From the IMG/VR virus record IMGVR_UViG_3300024259_001623: DNA of 64,000 bases. One strand, given 5' to 3'. Of the stretch, positions 1 through 57,332 are shown in pieces. Source of the DNA: a virus (taxonomy: Duplodnaviria; Caudoviricetes). Each line of letters starts with the position of its first letter. The stretch's first letter is position 1. The notes below the pieces were generated by a model. That model had not been told where the DNA came from. It saw only the letters and a list, made by a program, of their open reading frames with translations, and searched no databases. A program made the translations under genes and the position numbers.

Positions 1-457
1 TATACCCCCAGCCTTTACCGCTATCATAAGCTATAGTATGTATATTTTTAAAAAAGTTATACATATTAAATTCTACATAGGTAAAGTTTTTGTTTCTTAA
101 TCTTTTTATGACATGCTTAATACCAGCACCTGTATATAGTTCATCAGCATCTAAAACCCAAATATAATCAGTATCTCCTGGCATTGCTTTTAGTGTCAAA
201 TTGCTCTGCTGAGTTTCATTTTTATAAAATGAGTCATTTTGTATTAAAACGACCTTATTATTTGGATCAGGAAATTGCTTTATAATATTTATGGTATTAT
301 CTTGTGATCTTGGAGTTTTCCATCTATGAGTATTACCCCATTTCGCTGTTGCTCCCTCGGCAATTATTATTTTATGTGCATAAGGATAAACACATTCTAA
401 ACATTCCCTTAAAAAATATTCTCCATTGCATACTGTCATACTAAAACAAATATTCAT
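1..457 (-). CDS. Glycosyltransferase family 2-like protein (partial, runs off window start; missing from ORF track)
   Basis: Read manually from ATG at 457: MNICFSMTVCNGEYFLRECLECVYPYAHKIIIAEGA...SQDNT...DYIWVLDADELY; GT-A N-terminus and DxD motif, no stop before base 1; ATG abuts the stop of 458..1405. Confidence 0.75.
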   Translation of the reverse strand, partial: MNICFSMTVCNGEYFLRECLECVYPYAHKIIIAEGATAKWGNTHRWKTPRSQDNTINIIKQFPDPNNKVVLIQNDSFYKNETQQSNLTLKAMPGDTDYIWVLDADELYTGAGIKHVIKRLRNKNFTYVEFNMYNFFKNIHTIAYDSGKGWGY

Positions 458-1405
458 TTATCTAACCTTATAAAATTTTCTCATTTCTGGATTTTTTCTA
501 AACAAACTCTTTATAATACTCGATTCTTCTGTTGAAGCCTCAAGTATCGCATTCATATAATCTCTACCGTCTACCGGCTGACCGCCCCATAAAGTAATTT
601 TATTACAGATATCTAACACATCGCTATTTATATCTGATATATCTACATTATCATATACGGAACTCTTAAAATAAGTCGCCCCATCTCGTCTTCTTTTAAC
701 AGGTGCATGAGGACGATCAAATCTTTTCATATATCTATGGTCATCAAAAACAGGATATCTAATAGGACAATCAAGAACTTTGGAAACGAACTTCCTATTT
801 CTCTTGCTGAAAAAGTATCTGACCAATAATCTTTGATCATCTCCCCATTTGAATTTATTTGTAGGAGAAACCAATTCATTATAGTCACTAGTTATAAGTC
901 TTCTATCTCTTAATAAGGCAGCATTAAATCCGCATAGACCTCCATATATGGGAATAGAATTATGATGAGGATGACATCTCATACTATGAACATGCATCTC
1001 TTCAGCTTGCTTAAAAAATCTAACACTTTGAACTTCTTTCTGTTCAGGGATAGAATCTATATCTCTACAAAAACAAAACTTGACTTTCTTGTACCATAAA
1101 GGCTTCAATCTCCACAGCATAGGCTTGGAGTCTTTATAACTATCATCTAATATTTTGATTTCTACTTTGTCTGTGCTTTCGGATATTTGCTGTAGAAAAT
1201 CGAATACAGGCTTAGTAATCATATTTTTATGTACAAAAAATTTAGAAACAGAATCTTTGAAGAATTCTGAATTAGCTATAATAATTATTGGAATATTATA
1301 CCAATATCTATAATTATCATTCCTTAAAGGATCATGCCTTCTTACAGATTTTGTCTTCTTTCCGTATAAAGAATATGCTATTACATTTTTTTCTTTAATT
1401 CCCAT
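458..1405 (-). CDS. Putative glycosyltransferase-like protein
   Basis: 315 aa; IAYSLYG start, LWRLKPL and FCRDIDS (DxD-like) motifs; lies within GT cluster. Confidence 0.45.
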   Translation of the reverse strand: MGIKEKNVIAYSLYGKKTKSVRRHDPLRNDNYRYWYNIPIIIIANSEFFKDSVSKFFVHKNMITKPVFDFLQQISESTDKVEIKILDDSYKDSKPMLWRLKPLWYKKVKFCFCRDIDSIPEQKEVQSVRFFKQAEEMHVHSMRCHPHHNSIPIYGGLCGFNAALLRDRRLITSDYNELVSPTNKFKWGDDQRLLVRYFFSKRNRKFVSKVLDCPIRYPVFDDHRYMKRFDRPHAPVKRRRDGATYFKSSVYDNVDISDINSDVLDICNKITLWGGQPVDGRDYMNAILEASTEESSIIKSLFRKNPEMRKFYKVR

Positions 1406-2070
1406 TCAAACCACCTATTAGGATGACCATTCTTTTTATAAATCGTCTTCTCCAGCCAAGTTCTACCTGTATCCTGAACTAACCTTGCATAAATATTTTT
1501 TCTTGGATAATGATAAGAACAAAATTGACTTTTACAAACTTCTCTTATTTTTTGTTCTGGATTATGTTGAGGCGAAATCTTTTTACATACGTTTCTTGCC
1601 CATTCAGCATCAAACAAAGAAGGAGTCAGGCAAATTCTAAAATCTTTAAATCCATATACTCTCAATGATACTCCTATAACCTCTGCACCTGCCGTACCAT
1701 GTATTCTGCCAGCCTTTGGCCCTCTATTAATTGAAAGATAATTCAATATATCTGATATCTCAAATTTTTTCATCATTTTCCAATCATCTTCCAAATGAAA
1801 CAACATCTTTCCTTTAGTTTGGCTCCAACACCATCTCAATGCATTAGAAAAATTAGCCTTTTCAGGGATGTTATAAATAACTTCTCCAAAAAACTCTTTT
1901 GCCACATTCACAACGTCCATTGGATCTTTATTATAAGGAACAGGATCTACATTTAAATATAATGTAGACTTTTTAAAATCCACATCAAGCATTTTTCGAT
2001 TAAAGCTCTTATATGTTCTTCTTAATAATTTAGGACGACAGACAGCAGTAGTTGTAAAATCTAAATTCAT
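1381..2070 (-). CDS. Putative GT-A fold glycosyltransferase
   Basis: TTTAVCRPKLLRRT start, FHLEDDW (DxD-like) motif, GT cluster context. Confidence 0.55.
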   Translation of the reverse strand: MNLDFTTTAVCRPKLLRRTYKSFNRKMLDVDFKKSTLYLNVDPVPYNKDPMDVVNVAKEFFGEVIYNIPEKANFSNALRWCWSQTKGKMLFHLEDDWKMMKKFEISDILNYLSINRGPKAGRIHGTAGAEVIGVSLRVYGFKDFRICLTPSLFDAEWARNVCKKISPQHNPEQKIREVCKSQFCSYHYPRKNIYARLVQDTGRTWLEKTIYKKNGHPNRWFEWELKKKM

Positions 2071-2930
2071 TTAAATATCCCCCATCGTTTAGTATCAATA
2101 GGTAAACAAATAATCTTTTTATTTTTATTTTTTCTATAGATAATTCTATTATTTTCTCTTAATTTCTCTGATAACCAATTTTTTTCATGCTTATGAGAGA
2201 TATGATATACAGTAAAATAACTATTAGGACGCAAAGTTCCTTTTTTGTAATATCTAAAAGCTCTTAAATTAAAATCCAAATCTTCTAATCCATGACCAAT
2301 GAATCGTTCATCAAATCCGCCCAATTTAAAGAAATCATCTTTGGGCATAGTAAAATGACTATTACCTAAAGCTTTTGTCCTATAAAATTCTGGATCGCTT
2401 CTCATATTAGAAGGTAAATCATTTAATTTGATTTCTTTTTTAGTATATCTCTCTAATGCCAACTTATGTCTATTAATATTTTTGCACAATATGGCATATA
2501 ATTCTTTTTTAGTAAGATTATTGCAATTCTTTTTTATTCTTTGAGATACTCTATCATTTACGAATCTAACCCTATGAGCCAATTTAGTTTTTGTACCATT
2601 TTTAAAAAAATCATCTACATGACCAAGAAAACCTGGCAAAACCATAGAATCTATGTCTAACATAGTTATTAAATTGCCAGAAGCCTTGGAAGCACAATGG
2701 TTTAAGGCTTTAGTCTTCCAGAATGGCCCTGCATATCTAACTTTCAAAACTTTTAAATTCATCTTGTCTTTATACAAGTTAAATATTTTATCTGAACCAT
2801 CTGTACTATTCAAATCTGTAACAATAACTTCATACTTAGCATTAGTTTCTTCGCCAGATAAATACAAACTTCTCAGAAAAGTTTTTAGACATGCTTTCCT
2901 ATTTCTATATGCAGAAATTATTGTGTTCAT
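2067..2930 (-). CDS. Glycosyltransferase family 2 with galactosyltransferase-like C-terminal motif
   Basis: IISAYRNR, EVIVTDLNSTD, KTKALN, MLDIDS (DxD), GGFDERFIGHGLEDLDF. Confidence 0.85.
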   Translation of the reverse strand: MNTIISAYRNRKACLKTFLRSLYLSGEETNAKYEVIVTDLNSTDGSDKIFNLYKDKMNLKVLKVRYAGPFWKTKALNHCASKASGNLITMLDIDSMVLPGFLGHVDDFFKNGTKTKLAHRVRFVNDRVSQRIKKNCNNLTKKELYAILCKNINRHKLALERYTKKEIKLNDLPSNMRSDPEFYRTKALGNSHFTMPKDDFFKLGGFDERFIGHGLEDLDFNLRAFRYYKKGTLRPNSYFTVYHISHKHEKNWLSEKLRENNRIIYRKNKNKKIICLPIDTKRWGIFK

Positions 2931-3841
2931 ATATATGAAATCGGAATTTTCAAGATAAAAAAAGAATCACATAATACTTGAGTTTTATAATTTTCTCTTA
3001 TAGCCAAAATATTACCATCTACATCATAAGTCTTCCTACAAGACTTTCCCAATGGCGAAAATATATTTTGCACATATACATGAGGAATCTTTTTCATCAT
3101 AGTATCTCTTATATAGAAAATTAAATCATCATCTGTAGATTTCCAATGATTGTTTTTATAGGCTGGGAATATCTTTAATAAATGAACAGGCGTATTTTTA
3201 TCATGATCACATATTATTTTAGTAATATCTTCTATATGTTCGTCATCTATAGACGTTGTAGTAATACCATTACTATTTGGATATATTGGAATACTAATTT
3301 CTACATGAGCATTGCTGTTTAATGCATGGATTATATTCTCTAATATCAATATGTAACTATAGCACAAATCATCATCTTCTATTCCGGCCACATCATGATA
3401 AGACTTTTTGCCCCCTTTCAAATCTATGTTAATAGCATCTGAATATTCACAGACATGATTCCAAAACTCTCTTTCTATAAAAGCATTAGTCTTCAAAAAG
3501 GTAAACATGCCAGCCTTCTTAGACATATCAAATAGATTTAATAAATATTCATAATAAACCGTTGGTTCATTATAAGTCATGCCCACTCCATCTACCTTAT
3601 TTTCGATAGCGATATCTACAATCTCTTTACATGATTTGAGATTTTTATTATCACCACCATGCTGACTTATTTTCCAATTTTGACAATAATTACATTTCAA
3701 AGAACATCCATATCCTCCAACAGAAAGAACTGAAGAATTAGGTCTAAAATGGTAGAAAGGTTTTTTCTCTATAGGATCAACAGACAGATTGCTTATGTCC
3801 ATAACTGGAGATATAGTATTGTCAATTATATGAGTTTTCAT
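2927..3841 (-). CDS. Radical SAM enzyme, AmmeMemoRadiSam / PflA-like family
   Basis: DPIEKKPFYHFRP, CxxxCxxC (CSLKCNYCQN), TYNEPT, IDLKG. Start moved to ATG 3841 (ATGA overlap with upstream stop) rather than 3859. Confidence 0.85.
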   Translation of the reverse strand: MKTHIIDNTISPVMDISNLSVDPIEKKPFYHFRPNSSVLSVGGYGCSLKCNYCQNWKISQHGGDNKNLKSCKEIVDIAIENKVDGVGMTYNEPTVYYEYLLNLFDMSKKAGMFTFLKTNAFIEREFWNHVCEYSDAINIDLKGGKKSYHDVAGIEDDDLCYSYILILENIIHALNSNAHVEISIPIYPNSNGITTTSIDDEHIEDITKIICDHDKNTPVHLLKIFPAYKNNHWKSTDDDLIFYIRDTMMKKIPHVYVQNIFSPLGKSCRKTYDVDGNILAIRENYKTQVLCDSFFILKIPISYI

Positions 3842-4629
3842 AAAACTCCCCATTCCCAACCTACATTCTTCGTTATAAAAGACACATCTGATTTCGAGCG
3901 TCTTTCTTCTTGTATCCTAATACGGCGATTATTCTTTTTATAATGCCTGAAAAATAATCTATTATATTTGTTCTTCTCTATCTGATGCCACTGATGCAAA
4001 ATAGATGTTTTGTCATCAATCCATTTTGTTTCCAAACCATCTGCACTAGCTCTCATCCAAATATCATAATCCATACCTGACCACATATTGAACGATTCAT
4101 CATATCCATGAACTTTATGAAACCAAGTAGTTCTCGCAAATTGACAAGAACCACAAGCTCGTAAATCCTCTAATAACTCTGATTCTTCTTTCAAATCGTC
4201 AAAAGAACTCATTCTGAAATTTATTAGATCGTGATCAGGTTTAGTCAAATGAACTCGACAAGAAAGCATACTCTTTTTGCTTCTTTCTTCCCATAAAACA
4301 GATATAAAATCTTTTTTGAAAATACTATCAACGTCTGTACACATAACATATTCTGTTCTACATTCTTTTATACCAGCGTTAAGGGCTTGTGGTTTATTCC
4401 ACATTCGACCATCTAATTCTTTATATATATGGGCAGCACCATATTTTTTGCATATCTTATGGACTTCTTGATATGAATCATCATTGCTCACGTCAACCAC
4501 AATAATATCAGGATATATATCACTATCTTGTTCTCTCAAAGAGTACAAGAAATTGTTCAATCTATATATCCCACGATTATAGATATTATGGATAAAACAA
4601 ACAACCGATAATCCATCCTTATACGTCAT
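3838..4629 (-). CDS. Glycosyltransferase family 2
   Basis: IIVVDVSND, WNKPQALNAG, CTDVD (DxD), GYDESFNMWSGMDYD. Confidence 0.85.
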   Translation of the reverse strand: MTYKDGLSVVCFIHNIYNRGIYRLNNFLYSLREQDSDIYPDIIVVDVSNDDSYQEVHKICKKYGAAHIYKELDGRMWNKPQALNAGIKECRTEYVMCTDVDSIFKKDFISVLWEERSKKSMLSCRVHLTKPDHDLINFRMSSFDDLKEESELLEDLRACGSCQFARTTWFHKVHGYDESFNMWSGMDYDIWMRASADGLETKWIDDKTSILHQWHQIEKNKYNRLFFRHYKKNNRRIRIQEERRSKSDVSFITKNVGWEWGVL

Positions 4630-4631
4630 AA

Positions 4632-5234
4632 TTAATCTGCACCAACCTCTTCTACTTCCTTGACTTCTTCTACTTCCTTACCATACTTATCTTCTTTCCA
4701 TCTCTCTCCTACAATGCATTTTCCGGAAAGATGATCTAATTCGTGCTGTATAACTCTTGCCTTAAAATGGAAATATTTTTGCTCTTCTTGCTTTTCCATC
4801 TTTTCATTCCAATAAGTGATCATGATCTCTGGATACCTGGCGACAGATGTGCTAAAACCGGGATAAGACAAACAACTTTCTTTCTTTCTCTGTTCAAACC
4901 CGCTATAAATATTAACATATGGGTTGATCATAACTGTATACTTGCCATTATTGTCAGGATCAATAACAATAACATTTTTTGTAACACCAATCTGATTAGC
5001 TGCCAAACCTACACCAGAAGGACTTGCATCTAAAACATTCTTCATATCCTTGATGAAGGATAAATCATCGCCGGGGCTTACCTTTTCACATTCTTCTGAT
5101 AAAATAGGATTATCATACTTTAAAATCTTCTTTCTAAGAGCAGTAATTCTAGCTACACGGCGTTGTCTATTTAAATTTTGCACCTTTTTTCTTTTATTGT
5201 CTCTGGTTTTCCCTCTCGGCTTCTTATTCGACAT
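4632..5234 (-). CDS. def: Peptide deformylase
   Basis: GVGLAANQIG, ESCLS (variant of EGCLS), QHELDHL metal motif. Confidence 0.93.
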   Translation of the reverse strand: MSNKKPRGKTRDNKRKKVQNLNRQRRVARITALRKKILKYDNPILSEECEKVSPGDDLSFIKDMKNVLDASPSGVGLAANQIGVTKNVIVIDPDNNGKYTVMINPYVNIYSGFEQRKKESCLSYPGFSTSVARYPEIMITYWNEKMEKQEEQKYFHFKARVIQHELDHLSGKCIVGERWKEDKYGKEVEEVKEVEEVGAD

Positions 5235-5243
5235 ACAAATCTC

Positions 5244-5642
5244 CTATCTAAATAATTTTAACTTTATCTTAATTGATCCATCTTCTTTAGTTTGAGTTTT
5301 ACCTAAAGAATATCGGCCAGCATTCTTTTTTACAAACTTAAAAACTTTATTTTTTGCGTATAATTGTTTCAACTTATTAAGTTTAAAAACTCCCTTATCA
5401 TATGCAGACAGGTGCATAATATACTTGCCGTCTACCTTTTCAAAACCAACATCATTACTGGCACTACCCACCTGCGATCTAGGAATCACAACATGAGCCT
5501 TTTGTTTTCTTTTATCCCCTTGGTATCCATACAGATTTACAGCATCTTGATGAACTTTAGGATTATACTTCATTTCTTTCAAAGCCTGTAAGAGGCAGTC
5601 CACATCATCCATTTCTATTTCTACAACATGAAATTCACTCAT
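5244..5642 (-). CDS. DUF1257 (Ycf35-like) protein
   Basis: MSEFHVVEIEMDD..LLQALKEM, LYGYQGD..Q.A.VVIPR, SNDVGFEK pattern. Confidence 0.75.
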   Translation of the reverse strand: MSEFHVVEIEMDDVDCLLQALKEMKYNPKVHQDAVNLYGYQGDKRKQKAHVVIPRSQVGSASNDVGFEKVDGKYIMHLSAYDKGVFKLNKLKQLYAKNKVFKFVKKNAGRYSLGKTQTKEDGSIKIKLKLFR

Positions 5643-5901
5643 CTGTTTCTCCTATCTTTCTTAATATCCAATGAGGAAGAATATTTAATCCCTCTGGCAC
5701 AATAACAGCTTTTTTATTACACCCTAAAACAACATCATCTTTTTTAGGCAAAGTAAAAACAAAAGTATGTTCATATCCATTTGGAGGATTCGGTATAAAA
5801 CCGGCCCCTTTACATGCAGGACAACCAAAAACATTAAAAGAACGATCAGATTCTCTAGATTCGATCTTGCCTTCGCCTTTACAAAAAGTACATTTTTCCA
5901 T
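5635..5901 (-). CDS. Small DnaJ-type zinc-finger protein
   Basis: Two CxxCxGxG repeats (CTFCKGEG, CPACKGAG). Confidence 0.6.
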   Translation of the reverse strand: MEKCTFCKGEGKIESRESDRSFNVFGCPACKGAGFIPNPPNGYEHTFVFTLPKKDDVVLGCNKKAVIVPEGLNILPHWILRKIGETDE

Positions 5902-5903
5902 TT

Positions 5904-6392
5904 TTACTCCCGGTTCATAACATATTCTATAAAATCATGAACAGCACCATGTCCACCGTCAAATAGAGCTATAAAGTTGCATTCGTCTTGTACATTACAA
6001 AGAGCGTCATTAGGGCAACCAGTTATCTTGCAACTCTCCATACACGCAAGATCATTTTCTGCATCTCCAATATACGCTACTTCGTCCCACTTTATTCCCT
6101 GTTCTTCCAAAAATTTCCCCAAAAACTTCTTTTTCTCCCCATGACAACCAGTTATTAAAAATAAATTATTCAGCAATTCTCTATAATAATATAGCCCTTT
6201 CACTTTTTCTTGGATAGCTCCATCAGCAGCAGAAGTTAAAATAAGAAACTTAAAACCTTCAGTCAACGCCTTTTGAATAGCATTGAAGTCTCTAGTATAA
6301 AAAGATTTAGACACAGTTCCAGCATCAGAAACGAGGTACATACCGTCAGTTAAAGTTCCATCAACATCAGTTACAATCAGTTTTATAGACAT
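5904..6392 (-). CDS. kdsC: KdsC/YrbI-family HAD phosphatase (sugar-acid 8/9-phosphate phosphatase)
   Basis: TDVDGTLTDG motif I, F.TRD, VAYIGD..ND, GGHGAV.DFIE. Confidence 0.88.
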   Translation of the reverse strand: MSIKLIVTDVDGTLTDGMYLVSDAGTVSKSFYTRDFNAIQKALTEGFKFLILTSAADGAIQEKVKGLYYYRELLNNLFLITGCHGEKKKFLGKFLEEQGIKWDEVAYIGDAENDLACMESCKITGCPNDALCNVQDECNFIALFDGGHGAVHDFIEYVMNRE

Positions 6393-6420
6393 ATTTTCTC
6401 TCCAAAATAGACTCTAATAA

Positions 6421-6449
6421 ATTATAGCAGCACAATTATTATATTGCAA
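6421..6449 (-). promoter_or_regulatory. Sigma70/sigmaA-type promoter driving kdsC and downstream leftward genes
   Basis: Minus strand TTGCAA (6449-6444), 17-nt spacer, TGcTATAAT extended -10 (6429-6421); the -35 lies inside the palindrome ATATTGCAATAT (6441-6452). Confidence 0.7.
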
Positions 6450-6481
6450 TATTATCCGATATTTAAAATAGGAGAACAATA

Positions 6482-7351
6482 ATGAGCAATAACTTCACAT
6501 TAATAGCAGAGATAGGATGCACTCATATTGGAAATATCGACAGAGCAAAAAAATTAGCTCTATTAGCCAAAGAAAACGGAGCAGATGTAGTAAAGTTACA
6601 AAAAAGAAATCCATATGAATCAGTCCCAAAATCTTTGTGGGATAAACCTCATCCCAACCAAATATTTTCATATGGAGATACATATTTACAACACAGAATA
6701 AACGTAGAATTAAATAAAGATGCACATATAGAGTTCAAAGAATACTGTAAAAGTATTAATATCAAATATGCAACTAGCGTATGGGATATGACATCTGCTA
6801 AAGAAATGGTTGAAATAGACCCAGCATTTATCAAAATACCTAGCGCATGTAATAATAACTATGATATGCTAAAATATCTATTTGATAACTATAATGGAAA
6901 AATACACATATCATTAGGAATGACAACCGAGGAAGAAAGAGAAGATATATTAAGACATGTATACTTTGATTTCAATAAAGTAGTCCTTTATCATTGCACA
7001 AGTGGATATCCAGTTCCTTTTGAACAATTATATATAAAAGAAATAGAAAAACTAAACACTCTACAAAGAGAAAATGTATTTTTCGGGATTGACAAACCAG
7101 GAGTAGGTTTCTCTAATCACGGTTTTGGCATAGCTATAGAAATTGCAGCCTATATGTTAGGAGCAAGATATTTTGAAAGACACTTCATTGATGATAGAAC
7201 CTTCAAACACACTGACGCAAGCTGTTCACTTGAGCCTCAAGGTCTACATAAATTATCTCGTAATTTACAAGCTTTAGAGAAAACTTTACAATTTAAACCA
7301 GAAACTATAGACAATATCGAAATGGAACAGAGAAAAAAACTAAGAACGTAG
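6482..7351 (+). CDS. neuB: N-acetylneuraminate/nonulosonate synthase family protein (NeuB-like, lacks C-terminal SAF domain)
   Basis: IAEIG, ADVVKLQ, KIPSA, HCTSGYP, GFSNH, ERHF, D.SCSLEP; AGGAG RBS upstream; only credible plus-strand gene. Confidence 0.9.
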   Translation: MSNNFTLIAEIGCTHIGNIDRAKKLALLAKENGADVVKLQKRNPYESVPKSLWDKPHPNQIFSYGDTYLQHRINVELNKDAHIEFKEYCKSINIKYATSVWDMTSAKEMVEIDPAFIKIPSACNNNYDMLKYLFDNYNGKIHISLGMTTEEEREDILRHVYFDFNKVVLYHCTSGYPVPFEQLYIKEIEKLNTLQRENVFFGIDKPGVGFSNHGFGIAIEIAAYMLGARYFERHFIDDRTFKHTDASCSLEPQGLHKLSRNLQALEKTLQFKPETIDNIEMEQRKKLRT

Positions 7352-7352
7352 A

Positions 7353-7613
7353 TTACCACATATCATATTCTGTAACATCAATAGTTTCTTTAGTATAATT
7401 ATGAGTAACTTTCAAAACCTGCCCTAAAGATGTACTAGTAAAAGAATAAGTTAAAGATCCTCCAATAGCTCCATAATAAGGAAGCCCACTTTCGGCAGAT
7501 TCTTTTTCTATAACAGAATGAGAATTTTTTTGTTTCTCTATAACAATCTCATCCTGTTTTTTCTCCCATTCTGTTATCTTTTTTAATTGTTCATCTGATA
7601 TTGAAAATTTCAT
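7353..7613 (-). CDS. Hypothetical protein (86 aa)
   Basis: ORF with YYGAIGGSLTYSF motif; converges on neuB with a 1-nt gap. Confidence 0.55.
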   Translation of the reverse strand: MKFSISDEQLKKITEWEKKQDEIVIEKQKNSHSVIEKESAESGLPYYGAIGGSLTYSFTSTSLGQVLKVTHNYTKETIDVTEYDMW

Positions 7614-7700
7614 AACTTAAACTTATCTCCCTTCTCTACAAAACCAATAAACCCATCATCTTTGGGTTTGACATCTGTTCCCTGATAAAGTTAATTTCAC
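7610..7700 (-). pseudogene. Small ORF of about 29 codons interrupted by one extra base
   Basis: AAGGAG RBS then GTG 7700; a +1 shift after codon 4 gives MKLT-YQGTDVKPKDDGFIGFVEKGDKFKL ending in an ATGA overlap with the next start. Confidence 0.3.
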
Positions 7701-7726
7701 TATATTACTCCTTCTTTTACTGTTAT

Positions 7727-7735
7727 ATTATACCA
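7727..7735 (-). promoter_or_regulatory. Extended -10 promoter (TGgTATAAT)
   Basis: Intergenic, upstream of an AAGGAG RBS; no clear -35. Confidence 0.4.
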
Positions 7736-7758
7736 GTCACATACTAGATTTGAAATAT

Positions 7759-8220
7759 CTATTTATATTCATCTGGAGGTCCAGACTTATCTTTATTATT
7801 TGGATCATAATCTTCTGGAGGATCATAATCATCTCTTGGGGGAAGAAAATCATCACCAGCTTCTTCTGATTCTTCCTCATCTTCTTCATAATCTTCATCA
7901 TTATTGAAATCATCATAATCATAAAAATCTTCATCTTCATCTACTTTAGATAAGAAAATATAATTTCTACCCATCCACAAAACTACTCCTATTTCTAAAT
8001 CTTTCTTATCCTCATCGTACTTTTGTTCTATTCGATCTATTTTTGTTTTTGTTTTACTACTATCAAGCCACTCAGTATAAACATATTCCTCATCAAAATC
8101 AAAATGTTTTAACTCTGGATTACCTGGTGAGGGATTATAAAATCTTAATACAAAATGTTTCCCGCTCAGAATTTCATAATCATCAACGCTATCTTTTTTC
8201 ATTTTATACCATATTTCCAA
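7759..8220 (-). CDS. Hypothetical protein with highly acidic C-terminal tail
   Basis: 153 aa; D/E-rich last 60 residues with DDYDPP/EDYDP repeats. Confidence 0.65.
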   Translation of the reverse strand: MEIWYKMKKDSVDDYEILSGKHFVLRFYNPSPGNPELKHFDFDEEYVYTEWLDSSKTKTKIDRIEQKYDEDKKDLEIGVVLWMGRNYIFLSKVDEDEDFYDYDDFNNDEDYEEDEEESEEAGDDFLPPRDDYDPPEDYDPNNKDKSGPPDEYK

Positions 8221-8926
8221 TTATTCTGCACACATTTCCAATAAGCAAAAAATCATTTAAATCATCAATCTGCAAAGATTGATATTTGTCTGTTTTATAA
8301 GTAGTAATTTTTCCACCTAATCTATTATTATCAGAAAATAAAATATTCTTATCTGTTATATATATATTACCATTATCAAACAATGCAAAATCTTTTGATT
8401 TCATCTCTTGCCTCATCGGTCTATCATAATAATATAGATTTGGGCAATGTGCAGAATCTTGGTTATCATCTTGATACCAGAAAAATGGAGAAGTTTTACT
8501 GACAGTTAACAGACTATCAGCTTTATCATCCATCATTTTCTCTAAACATCTATCTAATAAATTATTATATCTTATTGGAGAAGAAGCTTGTAGACATACG
8601 ACTATATCAACATCTAACCCAAGATGATTAACAGATTGTATCAAAACATCTTCGTTTTTGACAAGATCTCCATTCAATTCTTCTGGTCTATCAATAAAAT
8701 ATAAAGACTCATCATTGTTAGTAGCCTTATATTGCAGAAAATATTTTTTTACGCTGGGACAACAAGAGTTTACAACATTATAATCTACATATTTACTTTT
8801 GGATGCAGCTTCTACTGACCACAGGAAAACAGGCTTGCCTGCCAATGACTTGTAATTCTTCCCTGGCAGACCTTTACTATCTTTACGAGCCAGAGTTATC
8901 GCCATTATTTTTTTATTATTTATCAT
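8204..8926 (-). CDS. neuA: Acylneuraminate cytidylyltransferase (CMP-sialic acid synthetase)
   Basis: ITLARKDSKGLPGKN, RPEEL, LQASSPIR, DNGNIYI, QIDDLNDF. Confidence 0.9.
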   Translation of the reverse strand: MINNKKIMAITLARKDSKGLPGKNYKSLAGKPVFLWSVEAASKSKYVDYNVVNSCCPSVKKYFLQYKATNNDESLYFIDRPEELNGDLVKNEDVLIQSVNHLGLDVDIVVCLQASSPIRYNNLLDRCLEKMMDDKADSLLTVSKTSPFFWYQDDNQDSAHCPNLYYYDRPMRQEMKSKDFALFDNGNIYITDKNILFSDNNRLGGKITTYKTDKYQSLQIDDLNDFLLIGNVCRIIGNMV

Positions 8927-8928
8927 AT

Positions 8929-9873
8929 TTAAAAATCTAAAAATCTATATGTCTTATCGGTTTTAATATCATTTTCATCTTCTTTTTTATCGACGCTGAC
9001 GCATTTCTCAATACATTCTGAAATTGCATTTACGACTTCTATATCTACAACAGATGAGACTATGTTAAGATCATTATCGAGAAGCGTTTTCAAATTATTA
9101 CTCTCTGCTGTTTTTCCTATTTTTTCTAATAATAGACATACAGCAAGAATTAAAGCAGGTAAACATTTCCTTGTTCCGCCTTTTTTATATATATCATGTT
9201 GTTTTTCCAAATATTTTTTAAATTTATCAATATGCTCTTTATCAAAATGCTTTTTACCAAGATAATATTCATTAATACACTTAGTATAATACTCATTCAT
9301 GCTATCAATAACTACTGTCTTATTTGGAGTTTTTTTATTATATTCTTTTTCAATATCAGAAATCATAGCTGATCCTTCCTCAGGAGTCATAAAACCAACA
9401 TTAACGGCCTCAAAGATTTGTTTTTGTTGTTTTTTCTTTTCCATTTCCGTGTTATATTCACTTGCAGCTTTAAGATTAGTAAATATTTTTTGATCCTCTT
9501 CTGCTAATATTTCTTTAGCTATTGTGTCTGACAATTTTTTTGCTTTATCTAACAATTGACCATTAGGATGATGAAGCTCTTTATTACCTTGATGTTTATA
9601 AGGTTTAGATAACAATTTCTTTTTTTTATTTAATTTATCGTATTCATTTTTGTGATATGCTTCAACAGCACCAGGGGGGAATGGCTGAACATCCACCAAT
9701 TCATTTAGAATCTTTTTATGATTATAATTATTCCCAAAAGGATTCATTTTATCAAATGCATCTTTGTTTTTATCAAAGAATTTCATCCATTTTTCTTTTT
9801 CTTTATTTGATACTGTTTCTGCCATTTCAATCTCCATACAAATCAAAAACATCTTCATATTTTTGTTTTTCAA
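8929..9873 (-). CDS. Hypothetical protein (likely start about 9825)
   Basis: Long ORF; first codons overlap the upstream gene, MAETVS is the probable start; ends RFLDF. Confidence 0.6.
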   Translation of the reverse strand: MKNKNMKMFLICMEIEMAETVSNKEKEKWMKFFDKNKDAFDKMNPFGNNYNHKKILNELVDVQPFPPGAVEAYHKNEYDKLNKKKKLLSKPYKHQGNKELHHPNGQLLDKAKKLSDTIAKEILAEEDQKIFTNLKAASEYNTEMEKKKQQKQIFEAVNVGFMTPEEGSAMISDIEKEYNKKTPNKTVVIDSMNEYYTKCINEYYLGKKHFDKEHIDKFKKYLEKQHDIYKKGGTRKCLPALILAVCLLLEKIGKTAESNNLKTLLDNDLNIVSSVVDIEVVNAISECIEKCVSVDKKEDENDIKTDKTYRFLDF

Positions 9874-10564
9874 AGCATTCTAGTACTCCACCAGATACAT
9901 CTATTATATGTATATTTTGTTTTTTAGCTTGTTTAGAAACAGCCTCCCAATAATCTATAAAATCTAATCCATGTTTGTCTACAGCCTTACCATTTATTTT
10001 CTTTTTAACCGTAGTAAATATCCTTCGCCCGTCTGTTCTAAATGGCTTTCTCTCTCCAGGGAACTGCCAATAATATCTTTTATTATTAGTTAAACAACTA
10101 TCACATCCTAATAACACTATTGGATCGCATCCCATTATATAAGCCATATGCACAGCAGACCCCGTAGAGCTTCTTGCACCTATTATAGGGTCCGACGCCC
10201 TTTTTGTAAATATAAGCCCATCTGGGTTATACTCACGCTTCCTGTGGTCATACCAGAATTTGTGATCATACCAGATAACTCTGTCTTTATCTAGATGGTC
10301 AACAAAACTTTCCATCTTTTTTTTGTATAGCAAACATTTACATTTTAATTTAGGAAGGTCAATAGAATAATAACTCCAATTGCTAACATCCCAATCATCT
10401 GACAAAAAATAATCACAAAATGGGACTTTTACAAGGCCAGAATTAACAGCTATGGTAACATGATCTCTTAACAGTTCTGTATTTTGAAAATGCAGAGATG
10501 GGCCTGCTCCTACCAAGAAAGCCATCTTACCTTTATGTAAATCTTGTAAATCATTTAGTTCCAT
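9827..10564 (-). CDS. DUF115 / Maf-like (GT42-related) putative nonulosonate transferase
   Basis: AFLVGAGPSL, IAVNSG, SSTGSAVHMAYIMGCDPIVLLGCD, matching the GxGPSL...A..LG...IxLxGxD pattern. Confidence 0.75.
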   Translation of the reverse strand: MELNDLQDLHKGKMAFLVGAGPSLHFQNTELLRDHVTIAVNSGLVKVPFCDYFLSDDWDVSNWSYYSIDLPKLKCKCLLYKKKMESFVDHLDKDRVIWYDHKFWYDHRKREYNPDGLIFTKRASDPIIGARSSTGSAVHMAYIMGCDPIVLLGCDSCLTNNKRYYWQFPGERKPFRTDGRRIFTTVKKKINGKAVDKHGLDFIDYWEAVSKQAKKQNIHIIDVSGGVLECFEKQKYEDVFDLYGD

Positions 10565-11135
10565 TTGAAATCCTTACTCTCTTAGTATCTGTATGGTCTA
10601 TATCGCAAATATAATAATACAACAACTTATCAATCTTATTTTCAGTTTCAATGAACTTTCTTACTTTATCACCATATATAAGGTCTTCCCCTCTATCTCT
10701 TTTTGTAAAACCAGCCTTCAAAGCTATTTCTCTTTTAACAGGAGTAATATGGTTAGTACCTATATAGTAAGTATCTCCAGATTTTTTCCAATTATAGTCT
10801 TTACCCCAAATTATTTTATAATTTGTTTTCTTTTTCCTTATCATCCATAATCCACGAATAGAACAGCAATCAGGATTATCTTTTAAAGCTTCTAATATTA
10901 ATTCTACATAATCATCTTCTACCATGTCGTCATCATCTATATAAGCAACATAATCTCCAGTAGCTTTCTCTAATAGTCTTTGTCTCTTTTCTCCTACTGT
11001 TACAGCCCCATTATCAACATCTATTATTATTTCTACATCATCTGTCTTTTGTCTATCCAGCGTATCTAACAGATTCTGTAAACTATGCTTTCTCTTTTCT
11101 AGAGAACATATTAATATAGATAATTTAATGCTCAT
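10551..11135 (-). CDS. Glycosyltransferase family 2
   Basis: LSILICSL, VGEKRQRLLEKATGDYVAYIDDDD. Confidence 0.85.
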   Translation of the reverse strand: MSIKLSILICSLEKRKHSLQNLLDTLDRQKTDDVEIIIDVDNGAVTVGEKRQRLLEKATGDYVAYIDDDDMVEDDYVELILEALKDNPDCCSIRGLWMIRKKKTNYKIIWGKDYNWKKSGDTYYIGTNHITPVKREIALKAGFTKRDRGEDLIYGDKVRKFIETENKIDKLLYYYICDIDHTDTKRVRISNGTK

Positions 11136-11866
11136 AAATATTTTCCTATATCTTCAAAATCTATTTTCTCAAATGCAGTTACTTTACTTCTCTTACCAAC
11201 ATTGTATATTTTACAACCTTTACTTTCTGCGAAAATATTTAGTGCAGAAAAGGCTCCCTGGTTTATACCAAATACATATCTTTGTTCTACGAAACCTGGC
11301 CTTGGTTTATTAATTCTTCTAGGCCATTCTCTTCTTGGTCTGTATTCCCAAAAATATCTTCTCTCGCCCAGGAAATAATGATCGACGCCAACCAAAAAGA
11401 TTTTTTTACATCCCATCTGTATAGCCAAATCAACACAAGAAGGCGTAGAACTACAATACGATAAACCCTCCTCATTCTCATCTATAACATCCGGCTCAGT
11501 TTTCCTAGGCCAAAAAACATAAAAATCATCTGGGATTTGATCTCTATACTTTAACCAACTTGTACGTATAATTTTATTACTAGAACTATTCTTTACAGTT
11601 TCCCAATAAGTCCATTCCCTGACCATAGAATCATTAGTTACCCAATATCTATTATCTTTATCACCTTTGCTCCAGTTAAACAGCAATATACCAGAATTAG
11701 TTGTAATAGAAACATAATCTTTAACAAAACTCAAATTCTTTTTGTATAAAGATGTTCCTGCACCAAAAACAAAAGCAGTTTCCCCATCATGTTTTCCTAT
11801 TAATTCCGTATACTTTGTTAATCCAGTTCCATCTACTAGATCAGGACTTTCAATTACATTTTCCAT
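11132..11866 (-). CDS. DUF115 / Maf-like (GT42-related) putative nonulosonate transferase
   Basis: AFVFGAGTSL, ITTNSG, SSTPSCVDLAIQMGCKKIFLVGVDH; paralog of 9827..10564. Confidence 0.75.
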   Translation of the reverse strand: MENVIESPDLVDGTGLTKYTELIGKHDGETAFVFGAGTSLYKKNLSFVKDYVSITTNSGILLFNWSKGDKDNRYWVTNDSMVREWTYWETVKNSSSNKIIRTSWLKYRDQIPDDFYVFWPRKTEPDVIDENEEGLSYCSSTPSCVDLAIQMGCKKIFLVGVDHYFLGERRYFWEYRPRREWPRRINKPRPGFVEQRYVFGINQGAFSALNIFAESKGCKIYNVGKRSKVTAFEKIDFEDIGKYL

Positions 11867-21428: not shown

Positions 21429-23432
21429 TTAGAATAACGATTCTGGACCTACGCCTCTTTTAGCAGATGCTTTCATATCTTTTCTCAAAGATCCAAATTT
21501 ACTTGCTAACATTTCCGCGAAATCTTGTTTTTTAATTTTTTGACCTTTAGGTAATTTTTTATTAAGTTCTTTAAATTCATCATTAAAGAATCCTGCTTCT
21601 GCCAAAGACCTAATAGCTCCCAGGTCTACCTTGCTAGTATCTGTATTGAATGCTATATCTCTCAAATTATCATACGGAGCATTCTTAGCCAATTCTGTAG
21701 CTGTTTCAATTCCTACGCCTTCACATACAATACTAGGCATTATCTCTGTGAATTCTACTCCAGAGTTTCCGTCTTTCTTCTTAATTATCTTATATTCTAC
21801 TCCACAAGAATTCAATTTCTTAGGAAGAATTTTTATATCAAACTTTTTACAGTCTCTTTCTAATTCCTTAACCTTATCGTACTTCTTACGAGTACTTTCT
21901 ATATTCATATACGCACACATAAATTCATCAGTATAATTCGATTTCAAATATGCCGTCATATAAGAGTCATAAGCATAGCAACATGAGTGAGCCGCATTAA
22001 AACCATAAGCTGCGAATGGAGTAATAAACTTCTCCCAATAATCATCTGCTATTCTTTCAGGTAAGCCTCTTTCCACGGCACCTTTAATAAACAAACCTTT
22101 ATACTTATCAATAAGATTTTGTTTCTTCTTACCAATACCCTTAATTAATACATATCCATCCGTTTCAGAGAAACCTGCTAGTTCTTTACAAATTTGCATA
22201 ACCTGTTCTTGGAAAACTAACACTCCATAGGTCTTATCTAAAATATGCTTGACGTGCTTCTCGATAACTGGATGGAAAAAGTCTACTGTCTTAAAACCCT
22301 TTTTCCTAGCACAATATTCTGGAATCGAAACCATAGGCCCAGGTCTATATAGTGCAATAGCGGCCATAATATCATTAAAACAATCGACTTCGATTTCTTG
22401 TATAGTCTCTTGCATCCCTCTATTTTCACACTGGAAAATACCTGTCAGCTTACCGCTCTTATACAGATCAAAAGTATTCTTATCATCTAGAGGCAAATTT
22501 TTGATATCTATATCTATATCATAATTTTGTTTAACCATCTCGACTGTCTTTTTAATAACAGATAATGTACTGATAGCCAATATATCAAATTTTATAAGTC
22601 CCATACTCTCAAGGTCTTCATTTGGGAATTGAGTAGCAAAACCCTTATTAGAAGTTCTCAAAGGAGCAATCGTATGCAATGGAACATTAGAAATAACTAC
22701 ACCAGCAGCATGAACTCCAAAATTAGAAACAATACCTTCTATAAGTTTTGCATGATTTCTAAAACCTTTTTCCTCGAATTTATCTATATACGCTTTGAAA
22801 TCTGAACAATACTTATAAGCATCTTCGATAGTCTTTATTTTATGCTCAACGCCATCTTCATCGGCTACTTTAAGAATAGCTCCGATCTGTCTTGGCAAAG
22901 AAGCAACTATCTCAGATACTTTAGCTTCATTTTCGCTTTTATTCTCTTTGCTACCTTTGAAAAATGCATTTGCTACATCAAGTGCCTTACCGATTCTACG
23001 TATTGCAGATTTTAATTTAAGACCACCATAAGTTCCGATATTGCCGACATTTTCTCTACCGTATTTGTCAATAATATAGTCATATATTTCTTGTCTACGG
23101 AAATATTCAAAATCACTATCAATATCTGGGAAACCTGCTCTAGCGAATGCTCTTCTTTTGAGCAAAAATTCCCCATCAGGGAATTTAGCAGTCATTCCTA
23201 TATAATAAGCAGTAATACTGTTAATGGCATTGTTCTTGCCTTTTCTTTTATTCTTTTTCTTTTTCTTTTTTCTTCTTTCCCATGTGTCGTAGAATCCCTC
23301 TAATAGACTACGACCGTCAAGGCCGTCCTCTACTTCCATAAAATCTAATTCACTATCTATTTGTTTCAGTGCGCTTTCGTCAGCACCCTGAACCTCAGAA
23401 AGAATTTGTTTTCTAATTTCTTCTATTTGCAT
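21429..23432 (-). CDS. dnaE: DNA polymerase III alpha, catalytic half (palm/thumb/fingers/HhH; no PHP, no OB fold)
   Basis: PDIDSDF, HAAGVVI, KFDILAIST, GIFQCE, ALYRPGP, TYGVLVFQEQVMQI, YGFNAAHS. Confidence 0.93.
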   Translation of the reverse strand: MQIEEIRKQILSEVQGADESALKQIDSELDFMEVEDGLDGRSLLEGFYDTWERRKKKKKKNKRKGKNNAINSITAYYIGMTAKFPDGEFLLKRRAFARAGFPDIDSDFEYFRRQEIYDYIIDKYGRENVGNIGTYGGLKLKSAIRRIGKALDVANAFFKGSKENKSENEAKVSEIVASLPRQIGAILKVADEDGVEHKIKTIEDAYKYCSDFKAYIDKFEEKGFRNHAKLIEGIVSNFGVHAAGVVISNVPLHTIAPLRTSNKGFATQFPNEDLESMGLIKFDILAISTLSVIKKTVEMVKQNYDIDIDIKNLPLDDKNTFDLYKSGKLTGIFQCENRGMQETIQEIEVDCFNDIMAAIALYRPGPMVSIPEYCARKKGFKTVDFFHPVIEKHVKHILDKTYGVLVFQEQVMQICKELAGFSETDGYVLIKGIGKKKQNLIDKYKGLFIKGAVERGLPERIADDYWEKFITPFAAYGFNAAHSCCYAYDSYMTAYLKSNYTDEFMCAYMNIESTRKKYDKVKELERDCKKFDIKILPKKLNSCGVEYKIIKKKDGNSGVEFTEIMPSIVCEGVGIETATELAKNAPYDNLRDIAFNTDTSKVDLGAIRSLAEAGFFNDEFKELNKKLPKGQKIKKQDFAEMLASKFGSLRKDMKASAKRGVGPESLF

Positions 23433-47170: not shown

Positions 47171-48286
47171 TTAATTTCCTTTTGAAAAAATTCTATTATA
47201 CTTATTTAATACAGAATCGAAGCAAAAACTTTCTTGAATCATTTTTCTTCCTTTTATACCCAATTCTTTTTTCAACTCTTCATCAAAAATAATTTTTTTA
47301 ATACTATTGCTAAAATCATTTTCTACTTTCTTAGTATATACGATATTGTCATCAGCATCCTTGTTTTCTGCTTTAATACATATACCTCCTTCAAGGTCTG
47401 GAGTATTGCCTACATTCAAAGAAACCCAAGGCAATCCCGCATTCATAGATTCTAAAACGACCAACGGAGCAACTTCTTTTTTAGAGGGAAAAACGAAAAC
47501 ATCAGAATCTAAAAAAGCTCCCACAGTATGCTCTCTTGGGATGTCACAAAGAACTTTATACTTGAACGGAACGTTTTTCAGCTTCATGACAAATTGATTT
47601 TTTATAACTTGAGAAAATGCAAAACCTTTCAGAGATGAGATAAATATCGCTGTAAAATCTTTGAACTCCGAATAGATATTATTTAATATAGGAATAATAT
47701 TGTCCTGGCCCTTACCTGGGAAAAAATTAGAAACACATAATAATATTTTACTTGTTTCTATATTATAAAATTTTCTAAAATCAAACTTACAATTCTCAAA
47801 CTCTGAGTCGTCTACGCTATTAGGTATTACTGTAAAAGGTATTTTATACCTCTTGCACATTAAAGAATCTTGATATTTTTCTGAATGAGTTATAACATTA
47901 AATGATTCAGTTTTGGACAAAAAGGAATTGAACAATGATCTGTTTCTGATCATATTATTCATTCCAACTAGCGCAATACTCTTACCGCAATCCAAACTAT
48001 TAGAAAATTTTACTACTTCCTTCCAATATGAAAACAAGTCTCCATAAACAAATAAATGATCAGGAGATTGTGTTTGCACCTGATTTATAAATCCTCTGCC
48101 AGAAGGACTTAAAGGTATGATCTTAACCCCGTTATGGATTAACTCTTTTTTCTTAACAGATTTGCTTAGGACAACACATTCATGACCGTACTGATTATGT
48201 AATCCTTCCGAAACTTGTTGTACTACCTTTTCTGATCCGCCGACATTTGGATAAGAATTATTTACTGCGAAAAATATTTTCGACAT
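47171..48286 (-). CDS. Glycosyltransferase family 4 (GT-B)
   Basis: YPNVGGSEKV, LCVSNFFPGKG, FVFPSKKEVAPLVVLESM.AGLP. Confidence 0.9.
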   Translation of the reverse strand: MSKIFFAVNNSYPNVGGSEKVVQQVSEGLHNQYGHECVVLSKSVKKKELIHNGVKIIPLSPSGRGFINQVQTQSPDHLFVYGDLFSYWKEVVKFSNSLDCGKSIALVGMNNMIRNRSLFNSFLSKTESFNVITHSEKYQDSLMCKRYKIPFTVIPNSVDDSEFENCKFDFRKFYNIETSKILLCVSNFFPGKGQDNIIPILNNIYSEFKDFTAIFISSLKGFAFSQVIKNQFVMKLKNVPFKYKVLCDIPREHTVGAFLDSDVFVFPSKKEVAPLVVLESMNAGLPWVSLNVGNTPDLEGGICIKAENKDADDNIVYTKKVENDFSNSIKKIIFDEELKKELGIKGRKMIQESFCFDSVLNKYNRIFSKGN

Positions 48287-48287
48287 A

Positions 48288-49115: not shown

Positions 49116-49130
49116 GTTCTATATCATATT

Positions 49131-49139: not shown

Positions 49140-49153
49140 TTCACTTTGTAACA

Positions 49154-56446: not shown

Positions 56447-56463
56447 GTTGATTTCCCAGAATA

Positions 56464-57327: not shown

Positions 57328-57332
57328 TTATA

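Follow-up and report, generated by a model that had tools for sequence, protein, structure and literature searches.

A predicted nonulosonate pathway in a phage genome

We analyzed a 64,000-nucleotide stretch of DNA (64 kb; hereafter the window) from a virus of the Caudoviricetes, IMG/VR record IMGVR_UViG_3300024259_001623, together with about 24 kb of upstream sequence, for a total of about 88 kb from a genome of at least 434 kb. Our subject is the interval 5904-11866, which an earlier note on this DNA had read as a complete phage-encoded pathway for the synthesis and transfer of a nonulosonic acid, a sialic acid-like sugar. The interval contains ten open reading frames (ORFs), nine of them on the minus strand, with the synthase gene as the sole plus-strand gene (Table 1). 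Family searches against Pfam, NCBIfam, and PHROGs identified six ORFs, and three had no informative match. The NeuB-like synthase, KdsC-type phosphatase, NeuA-type cytidine monophosphate (CMP)-sugar synthetase, and transferases named in the note are all present, and the interval begins and ends exactly at ORF boundaries. Both of the transferases it had counted are there, but the count fell short, as a small family 2 glycosyltransferase (GT2) makes three transferase genes in all, two of them resembling the flagellin glycosyltransferase Maf.

Table 1. Coordinates of the features at the locus (positions in the window).
Feature	Position	Strand	Basis
Adjoining part of the glycan island: GT2 genes (2-457, 2067-2930, 3838-4629), radical SAM gene (2927-3859), two unassigned ORFs	2..4629	-	
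YrbI/KdsC-family HAD (type C0) phosphatase, 162 aa	5904..6392	-	NCBIfam, PDB matches, HAD motifs
Divergent intergenic region between phosphatase and synthase starts, 89 bp	6393..6481	.	Sequence read
SAF-less NeuB-family synthase, 289 aa	6482..7351	+	Pfam, AF2 model, Swiss-Prot neighbors
86-aa ORF, phrog_26220	7353..7613	-	PHROG match
Strongly acidic ORF, 147-153 aa, 49 D+E	7759..8220	-	Sequence composition
CMP-nonulosonate synthetase (CMAS/NeuA type), 240 aa	8204..8926	-	CTP_transf_3, PDB matches
Lys/Glu-rich ORF, 298-314 aa	8929..9873	-	Sequence composition
Minimal Maf-like (MptE-like/DUF115) transferase 1, 245 aa	9827..10564	-	Pfam, PHROG, Foldseek
Small GT-A (GT2-like) glycosyltransferase, 194 aa	10551..11135	-	Pfam, PHROG
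Minimal Maf-like transferase 2, 244 aa, paralog of transferase 1	11132..11866	-	Pfam, PHROG

The synthase matched the Pfam NeuB family (PF03102) far above its cut-off (1.3e-52, 179.1 bits; cut-off 22.1). Its NCBIfam scores, 153.6 bits (6.7e-45) against NeuB_NnaB (TIGR03569) and 100.7 bits against PseI (TIGR03586), fall far below the respective cut-offs of 399.65 and 340.25, and the protein should not be labeled an N-acetylneuraminic acid (Neu5Ac) synthase or a pseudaminic acid (Pse) synthase. The SAF (antifreeze-like) domain that is canonical in NeuB, PseI, LegI, and NANS was not found in this protein, which ends at residue 289 with two helices. The AlphaFold2 (AF2) model (predicted local distance difference test score, pLDDT, 90.3) consisted of a complete NeuB TIM barrel plus these two C-terminal helices, and its PDB neighbors were NeuB 1xuu (query TM-score, TMq, 0.81) and the short Leptospira NeuB 6ncs, which is also SAF-less. 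As a substitute for tree placement against characterized 9-phosphate synthases, we ran a Swiss-Prot fold search, in which the human and mouse N-acetylneuraminate-9-phosphate synthases ranked first (E 1e-23, TM 0.87, 30-31% identity) and fly NANS fifth, placing NANS enzymes above LegI, NeuB, and PseI. Nine of the 11 metal- and phosphoenolpyruvate (PEP)-binding residues of Neisseria meningitidis NeuB (E25, K53, K129, S132, S213, H215, E234, H236, D247, E134, N184) are kept, and synthase residues E10, K38, Q40, K118, S121, S211, H213, E232, H234, and D245 do not vary when 26 phage-clade sequences are aligned. SAF-less NeuBs have been reported to cluster with environmental Streptomyces and Brevibacterium (PMC8208679), and Streptomyces albus and a Brevibacterium sp. 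are listed among organisms that produce only 3-deoxy-D-glycero-D-galacto-nonulosonic acid (Kdn; PMC12934254). The same 26-sequence alignment contains a long conserved basic loop after strand 2 (QKRNPxE...KPHPNQ...HR, synthase residues 41-72). By analogy with the alpha2-beta2 loop of human NANS, which favors the phosphorylated reaction (PMC8208679), this loop is a candidate phosphate-binding element.

The cap-less phosphatase aligned end to end with KdsC and with BT1713, the characterized Kdn-9-phosphate (Kdn-9-P) phosphatase of Bacteroides thetaiotaomicron, and it has the features of a type C0 haloacid dehalogenase (HAD) enzyme. HAD motifs I-IV are intact: DxDGT (D9/D11), T53, a lysine cluster at 87-89, and GDxxND (G109-D110-x-x-N113-D114). 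Against NCBIfam it scored 73.7 bits as KdsC (1.4e-20), 72.6 bits as KDN-9-P phosphatase (NF058599; 4.1e-20), and 69.1 bits as the YrbI subfamily (TIGR01670; 3.9e-19), below the curated cut-offs of 180 bits for NF058599 and 106.95 for TIGR01670. Its PDB matches included the phosphatase of 3-deoxy-D-manno-octulosonate (Kdo) 8-phosphate (4hgn, 2e-13) and the KDN-9-P phosphatase 3e81 (2.4e-11). We assign it to the pathway because its gene adjoins that of the synthase, and it is predicted to dephosphorylate a nonulosonate 9-phosphate.

The CMP-synthetase matched Pfam CTP_transf_3 (8.4e-12), and its best PDB sequence matches were the CMP-Kdn synthetase of Prymnesium parvum (PpNeuA; 9t4z, 1.1e-14) followed by mouse CMAS (1qwj, 7.7e-14). 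A profile of the CMAS proteins of this module gave the same order, with 245.7 bits for PpNeuA, 217.7 for mouse, and 152.4 for N. meningitidis. Arg196 of PpNeuA is a gate-keeper for Kdn, as the R196L substitution switches preference from Kdn to Neu5Ac; this arginine occurs only in Kdn-specific enzymes, and leucine is common in Neu5Ac enzymes (PMC12934254). In pairwise and profile alignments, R202 of the window enzyme corresponds to Arg196 (R214 in the 9t4z chain, whose numbering is that of the paper plus 18; Leu164, Lys165, Tyr183, and Arg196 fit this offset), Q113 to Gln110, and Y189 to Tyr183. The gate-keeper column holds arginine in all four phage enzymes and in all 44 cellular fused enzymes described below, isoleucine in Moritella viscosa NeuA, which comes from a canonical neuA-neuB-neuC cluster, and leucine in mouse CMAS. 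With Arg202, Gln113, and Tyr189, the window protein has the residues of a CMP-Kdn synthetase of the PpNeuA type and is predicted to be one.

Transferase 1 matched the Pfam MptE-like family at 2.6e-8 (34.2 bits, just under the cut-off of 34.6) and phrog_4603 at 5.6e-12, and it carries a GAGPSL motif. PDB sequence searches with the two Maf-like proteins returned only noise, so structure prediction was needed. For the AF2 model of transferase 1 (pLDDT 96.6), the top Foldseek match was the Maf glycosyltransferase 5mu5 (E 6.4e-7, TMq 0.58), followed by the archaeal MptE HPPK and then by the sialyltransferases ST8SiaIII and CstII, and we predict that transferase 1 is a CMP-nonulosonate-dependent glycosyltransferase. 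Transferase 2 (MptE-like 2e-7; phrog_4603 7e-9) is its paralog (25% identical, E 1e-17). The two phage proteins cover only the central domain of Maf, with a target TM-score (TMt) of 0.25 against the 632-aa enzyme. The Maf literature describes enzymes that O-glycosylate serine and threonine residues of flagellin with nonulosonic acids in the cytoplasm, and those characterized there transfer Pse, legionaminic acid (Leg), or Neu5Ac. Homologs of transferase 1 occur in the related phage contigs L006 (53% identical) and L007 (47%), and homologs of transferase 2 in L006 (46%) and L009 (41%). The small GT2 protein matched Pfam Glycos_transf_2 (1.6e-9) and, along its full length, phrog_14775 (1.6e-33); it is not conserved in the related phage loci.

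The three remaining ORFs in Table 1 (7353-7613, 7759-8220, and 8929-9873) were dropped as parts of the pathway, having no informative family match and no homolog in the related phage loci. The first probably lies outside the pathway, and the true start of the third is probably an internal ATG near 9825-9837. Within the 89-bp divergent region, an AGGAGA Shine-Dalgarno sequence lies 6 nt 5' of the synthase ATG. Promoter-like hexamers also occur there, but a promoter and terminator scan gave no enrichment over shuffled sequence, and for this reason we claim no operon structure.

Conservation in related phages and in cellular genomes

Three related jumbo-phage contigs (L006, L007, and L009) carry the phosphatase, the synthase, the CMP-synthetase, and at least one Maf-like gene, and two of them (L006 and L009) also share flanking replication genes with the window. 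The phosphatase gene adjoins neuB divergently in the window, L006, L009, and L010, whereas L007 has a methyltransferase gene between the two. Conservation of this gene set among related phages, together with the E-values of the matches, is far beyond chance, and we regard it as very likely that the phage encodes a CMP-nonulosonate pathway. Identity among the 26 phage-clade NeuBs is 55-79%, and these proteins make up a monophyletic group (SH-aLRT support 99) inside the short NeuB family. One clade with this degree of divergence points to a single acquisition long ago, with long retention since.

Some relatives of the phage NeuB are filed in cellular metagenome-assembled genomes (MAGs): L006 (SDBU01000027.1, in GCA_004196255.1), L038 (a 3-kb contig in an Aenigmatarchaeota MAG), and P0117 (labeled 'archaeon'). 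Synteny of UvrD, SpoVS, and primase clearly marks L006 as a jumbo-phage contig, and L038 branches as sister to the phage clade; the entries look like phage contigs that were binned into MAGs.

The module lies inside one co-oriented block with phage genes on both sides. Downstream are genes for UvrD, thioredoxin, SpoVS, primase, UvsX, a two-piece DNA polymerase, DnaB, and helicases, and upstream are further GT2 genes, a radical S-adenosylmethionine (SAM) enzyme, peptide deformylase, and a DUF1257 protein. At about 32%, the GC content is uniform, and the same locus was independently assembled in ENA, JGI, and Logan contigs. Seawater contigs as long as 434 kb, each assembled independently, encode the same proteins, and a sequencing-run search detected the stretch in at least 14 seawater metagenome runs. 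In a phage collection, a near-identity DNA search gave no match and NeuB homologs were present in only three of 50,697 records, all less than 32% identical; no PHROGs family matched the window NeuB. We considered whether the cluster could be cellular DNA, either a mis-assembly or a freshly captured host island, since the nearest cellular NeuBs are 45-52% identical and some relatives are filed in MAGs. The phage flanks, single co-oriented block, uniform GC, and independent assemblies all speak against this, as do the synteny of module and flanks in related phage contigs and the deep divergence within the monophyletic phage clade, which suggests long vertical inheritance. We consider a cellular origin of this kind extremely improbable.

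Two features of the flanks stand apart from the module. The DNA polymerase is encoded in two ORFs (window 21429-23432 and 24435-27095) that match phrog_405 positions 439-939 and 31-406; the pieces are separated by small ORFs, so that either the polymerase is split or an insertion interrupts it. Between the glycosyltransferase block and the nonulosonate module (window 2927-5901) are the radical SAM, peptide deformylase, and DUF1257 genes and a gene for an 88-aa CxxC zinc-ribbon protein, and the first three of these also occur near neuB in phage contigs L007, L009, and L010 (35-59% identity).

A scan of species-representative genomes recovered 80 loci encoding this short NeuB (45-52% identity to the phage protein), mostly in Bacteroidota and also in many other phyla, including archaea. 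A CMAS homolog lay beside NeuB in 73 of the 80 and a YrbI phosphatase in 55, and in 44 loci the two were encoded by one fused ORF (about 385 aa) directly downstream of NeuB; the domains were checked with Pfam for one such fusion. Seven fusions were scanned against NCBIfam. In six, the phosphatase domain matched the KDN-9-P phosphatase equivalog best, at 160-192 bits, and three of these six reached the cut-off of 180 bits; the domain from L092 scored slightly higher as KdsC. Two stand-alone phosphatases from short-NeuB loci also had the equivalog as their best match, one above the cut-off, and for the phosphatase part of the fusion profile the best PDB match was BT1713. NeuC was not found in 78 of the 80 loci, and the neighboring genes are polysaccharide genes, including Wzx, ABC transporters, pyruvyl transferases, and Wzz. 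Based on this linkage, the phosphatase matches, the polysaccharide neighbors, and the absence of NeuC, the triad of short NeuB, CMAS, and phosphatase appears to be a widespread cellular Kdn-type module, of which the phage carries a split and divergent form.

A variant occurs in Chitinophagales loci (L043, L045, L064, L081, L087, and others), where an unfused CMP-synthetase with methionine in the gate-keeper column follows the short NeuB. Of the loci examined, L043 and L064 have a stand-alone phosphatase of the KDN-9-P type, and nine have KdsA. This methionine-type variant may make a different nonulosonate or have relaxed specificity.

The surrounding glycan island and the identity of the sugar

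The earlier note had treated the pathway as a self-contained cluster, which did not hold: the nonulosonate module lies at one end of a larger glycan island (about 33 kb, 42 proteins), which runs about 21 kb beyond the window start on contigs of the same genome (L011/L014). Those 21 kb contain GT1, GT2, and GT4 genes, four to five sulfotransferase-like genes, SAM methyltransferases, a short-chain dehydrogenase/reductase (SDR), a third MptE-like gene, a GT9 gene, and a gene for a 594-aa fusion protein. This protein, from the region L014:17326-20855 (about 17-21 kb before the window start), is a second CMP-ulosonate enzyme, in which a DRE-TIM (HMGL-like) aldolase is joined to a KdsB-type CMP-Kdo synthetase. 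It scored 281.6 bits against NF009905, above the cut-off, and matched the putative aldolase 3dxi (2.9e-45) and KdsB 1gq9 (4.6e-38) in the PDB; the third MptE-like gene precedes it and the GT9 gene follows. The fusion could provide a pyruvate-aldolase route to a Kdo-like sugar in which no phosphatase is needed.

The absence of a NeuC epimerase, as noted earlier, was borne out by tblastn: a NeuC reference had no match in the window, in the 24 kb upstream, or in the related phage loci. The wider search for neuC, pse, and leg genes that had been proposed likewise returned none in the window and upstream sequence. Pfam matches for the island included no DegT aminotransferase or acetyltransferase, two IMG/VR relatives, both fragments, had no Epimerase_2, and the only SDR of the island is RmlB-like (TIGR01181, 272 bits, vs. 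104 for LegB and 30 for PseB). A Pse or Leg route was rejected on the basis of this RmlB-like SDR and because no aminotransferase, acetyltransferase, or NeuC, LegG, or PseG homolog was seen in the DNA inspected.

Together, Arg202 of the CMP-synthetase, the NANS-like neighbors of the synthase, the KDN-9-P phosphatase-type domains of the cellular fusions, and the lack of NeuC, Pse, and Leg genes in the DNA searched lead us to regard Kdn, made by the 9-phosphate route, as the best-supported and probable product. The SAF-less synthase would condense PEP with mannose-6-phosphate, presumably taken from the host, to give Kdn-9-P; the divergently transcribed YrbI-type phosphatase would strip the 9-phosphate to give Kdn; the CMAS-type cytidylyltransferase, with its gate-keeper arginine, would convert Kdn to CMP-Kdn; and one or both of the minimal Maf-like transferases, whose fold is that of sialyltransferase-like CMP-sugar enzymes, would pass Kdn to an acceptor. 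The 9-phosphate route to a Kdn-like product from a host hexose phosphate, as the note had envisaged it, is thus partly supported: the synthase, the CMP-synthetase, the cellular fusions, and the lack of precursor genes in the DNA searched speak for it, and it is weakened at the phosphatase.

Several observations weigh against this assignment. The phosphatase scores level as KdsC and as KDN-9-P phosphatase, far below the cut-off in both cases. Glu56 and Lys67 of BT1713, presumed specificity residues that are identified by the mutant chains 4hgq and 4hgr in the PDB, are replaced by Ala55 and Gly66, and there is an insertion. Four related phage phosphatases have the same losses, the same insertion, and KdsC-level scores, whereas the cellular fused domains keep both residues. 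In the synthase, E134 and N184 of N. meningitidis NeuB are replaced by Cys123 and Ser174; across the 26-sequence alignment Ser174 is invariant and Cys123, at the position of the proposed catalytic Glu134, is the majority residue. Human NANS, the nearest reviewed relative, produces Neu5Ac-9-P as well as Kdn-9-P. Characterized Kdn-9-P synthases are missing from our NeuB tree, which left out BT1714, the P. parvum synthase, and human NANS, and a search with a Bacteroidaceae NeuB homolog had no B. thetaiotaomicron entry among the 120 matches listed. The gate-keeper rule has an exception in trout CMAS, which has leucine and still prefers Kdn (PMC12934254). The negative results for precursor genes cover about 88 kb, whereas the genome measures at least 434 kb, so a route encoded elsewhere is conceivable, and the sequencing-run search returned DNA runs only, with no RNA or proteome data among its results.

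The same three-enzyme logic could instead lead to a nonulosonate with a 5-N-acyl group, whether Neu5Ac, Leg, Pse, or a derivative, from a host precursor such as N-acetylmannosamine-6-phosphate. NCBIfam places the synthase nearest NeuB/NnaB and then PseI, its nearest reviewed relatives are annotated as Neu5Ac-9-P synthases, PHROG 4603 is labeled alpha-2,3-sialyltransferase, and the sugars moved by the Maf enzymes described above are all of this class; the DNA inspected is, moreover, only part of the genome. Arg202, however, would be expected to collide with an N-acetyl group at C5, and the window and upstream DNA contain no NeuC, aminotransferase, acetyltransferase, or PseB/LegB-type dehydratase, with NeuC also absent beside 78 of the 80 cellular homologs. 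The synthase also lacks the SAF domain, home of Arg314, the only conserved catalytic residue within that domain (PMC8208679). On balance, we think a 5-N-acylated product unlikely. As for the role of Arg314, in N. meningitidis NeuB it touches the N-acetyl group.

Another alternative is that the product is some other 2-keto-3-deoxy acid, namely Kdo or an ulosonate of 8 or 9 carbons, not yet described, derived from another sugar phosphate, with a phosphatase of the Kdo-8-phosphate type. The phosphatase is marginally higher as KdsC, its best PDB match is a Kdo-8-phosphate phosphatase, and it lacks the markers of KDN-9-P phosphatase; the synthase is substituted at the two NeuB residues described above, and the island also has a KdsB-like enzyme and GT9. 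This reading is hard to reconcile with a synthase in the NeuB family rather than the KdsA/DAHP-synthase family, with a cytidylyltransferase that scores 55-58 bits on CMP-Kdn and CMP-Neu5Ac synthetase structures compared to about 29 bits on the NCBIfam KdsB models, and with an island in which no KdsA was seen and the separate aldolase-KdsB fusion already covers activation of a Kdo-like sugar. We judge it somewhat less probable still than a 5-N-acylated product, and retain Kdn as the preferred assignment.

Possible acceptors and comparison with known systems

Among the 42 island proteins, we saw no flippase, polymerase, polyprenol-phosphate priming enzyme, or exporter, and no clear transmembrane segment (the Lys/Glu-rich ORF at 8929-9873 has a single segment at threshold). 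The Maf-type fold of the transferases and this lack of membrane and export proteins in the island favor a cytoplasmic protein as acceptor, rather than a change made to the surface of the host. By analogy with flagellin modification by Maf, the acceptors are most likely phage structural proteins that would be O-glycosylated in the cytoplasm before assembly, and virion proteins are our leading guess. Elsewhere in the window (47171-63284), a GT4 gene (47171-48286) and a GT2 gene (48288-49115) lie directly beside genes for two giant proteins, one (2430 aa) containing Kelch repeats plus a LamG/ConA-like domain and the other (1983 aa) containing an FN3 domain, with a Ser+Thr content of 20%. Both resemble fibre or adhesin genes accompanied by glycosyltransferases of their own, an arrangement that fits virion glycosylation circumstantially.

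The same chemistry could also serve the host envelope, if the acceptor were a glycoconjugate such as lipopolysaccharide (LPS), capsule, or a receptor and its modification blocked superinfection or the trapping of progeny on debris. Phages are well known to modify the surface glycans of their hosts, GT9, present in the island, is the family of the LPS-core heptosyltransferases, and the module's cellular homologs are found within surface-polysaccharide loci, alongside Wzx, ABC transporters, pyruvyl transferases, and Wzz. For such a role one would look for a flippase, polymerase, priming phosphoglycosyltransferase, or membrane protein, and the 42 island proteins include none; the dedicated transferases have the fold of Maf, whose members act on proteins in the cytoplasm in the literature cited above, and further glycosyltransferase genes lie directly beside the giant Kelch/LamG/FN3 genes. 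A host-envelope acceptor is thus doubtful, if less so than either alternative product. Taking the island as a whole, we tentatively propose that this marine jumbo-phage lineage builds a sulfated, methylated, acidic glycan in the cytoplasm, caps it with Kdn, and places it on fibre or capsid proteins by means of minimal Maf-type O-glycosyltransferases, although this full picture is rather less likely than the Kdn assignment on its own.

If this proposal is correct, jumbo phages of a clade that is widespread in the ocean draw on host PEP, mannose-6-phosphate, and CTP to make a glycan cap with a negative charge, which could alter the adhesion of virions to particles, mucus, grazers, and non-host cells, as well as their stability in seawater. 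Such a sialic acid-like virion coat would be a phage counterpart to the fibril glycosylation of giant viruses and to cellular sialylation. Sialic acid-like sugars are known chiefly from the surfaces of cells, where recognition is under their control, and we found no report of a bacterial virus that makes and transfers its own. The literature that we searched describes no Kdn or sialic acid 9-phosphate route that is encoded by a phage or other virus and includes Maf-type transferases; a paper on 'moraphage' jumbo phages describes core glycosyltransferases, mentions no sialic acid genes, and covers genomes only up to 307 kb. SAF-less environmental NeuBs and the Kdn route were already known (PMC8208679, PMC6200933, PMC12934254), and what appears to be new, as far as published descriptions were found, is such a pathway in a phage. 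The module also suggests a testable label, Kdn-9-P synthase, for a very large and so far unnamed family, found in Bacteroidota and many other phyla, whose members are annotated as 'N-acetylneuraminate synthase family proteins'. Its compact soluble enzymes (the 289-aa synthase, stand-alone phosphatase, Kdn-type CMP-synthetase, and 245-aa Maf core) could be tried for CMP-Kdn production and protein O-glycosylation.

The closest parallels are the Kdn pathways described for B. thetaiotaomicron and P. parvum (PMC6200933). Like the phage module, the pathway of B. thetaiotaomicron (BT1714, BT1713, and a CMP-Kdn synthetase) and that of P. parvum combine a NeuB-family synthase, a type C0 YrbI-family HAD phosphatase, and a CMAS with the gate-keeper arginine, lack NeuC, and start from a central metabolite. 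The phage module differs in being virus-encoded and in having dedicated Maf-like transferases, and its phosphatase, in contrast to BT1713, is a divergent stand-alone form without the Glu56/Lys67 markers. The animal pathway (NANS, NANP, and CMAS) is similar in that NANS is the closest reviewed relative of the synthase and mouse CMAS the second-best PDB match of the CMP-synthetase, and the C-terminal phosphatase-like domain of vertebrate CMAS (3ewi) is mirrored by the cellular CMAS-YrbI phosphatase fusions. Unlike the animal pathway, the phage has a synthase without SAF, a gate-keeper arginine instead of leucine, separate genes for phosphatase and CMAS, and no GNE epimerase/kinase.

Bacterial neuABC clusters, such as those of M. 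viscosa and N. meningitidis (siaABC), share the pairing of a NeuB-family synthase with a CMAS-type synthetase, but they include NeuC, a SAF-bearing NeuB of about 347 aa, and a hydrophobic gate-keeper (isoleucine in Moritella), and they have no phosphatase; the phage NeuB is about 27% identical to the Moritella enzyme. The transferases resemble the Maf flagellin O-glycosyltransferases of Magnetospirillum (5mu5), Aeromonas, and Clostridium in their MptE-like/DUF115 sialyltransferase-like fold, their G-x-G-P/T-S motif, and their gene linkage to a CMP-nonulosonate pathway. Whereas Maf is about 630 aa long, the phage proteins are about 245 aa, lack the N- and C-terminal domains, and fall just below the Pfam gathering threshold, and because no flagellin was seen in the inspected phage DNA, their acceptor must differ.

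Viral precedents also exist. The giant virus CroV carries Kdo genes, Mimivirus has fibril glycans, and glycosylation of capsids and tails in mycobacteriophages is cited in PMC12619734. Like the phage described here, these are cases of a virus with its own nucleotide-sugar synthesis and glycosyltransferases, presumably serving the particle.

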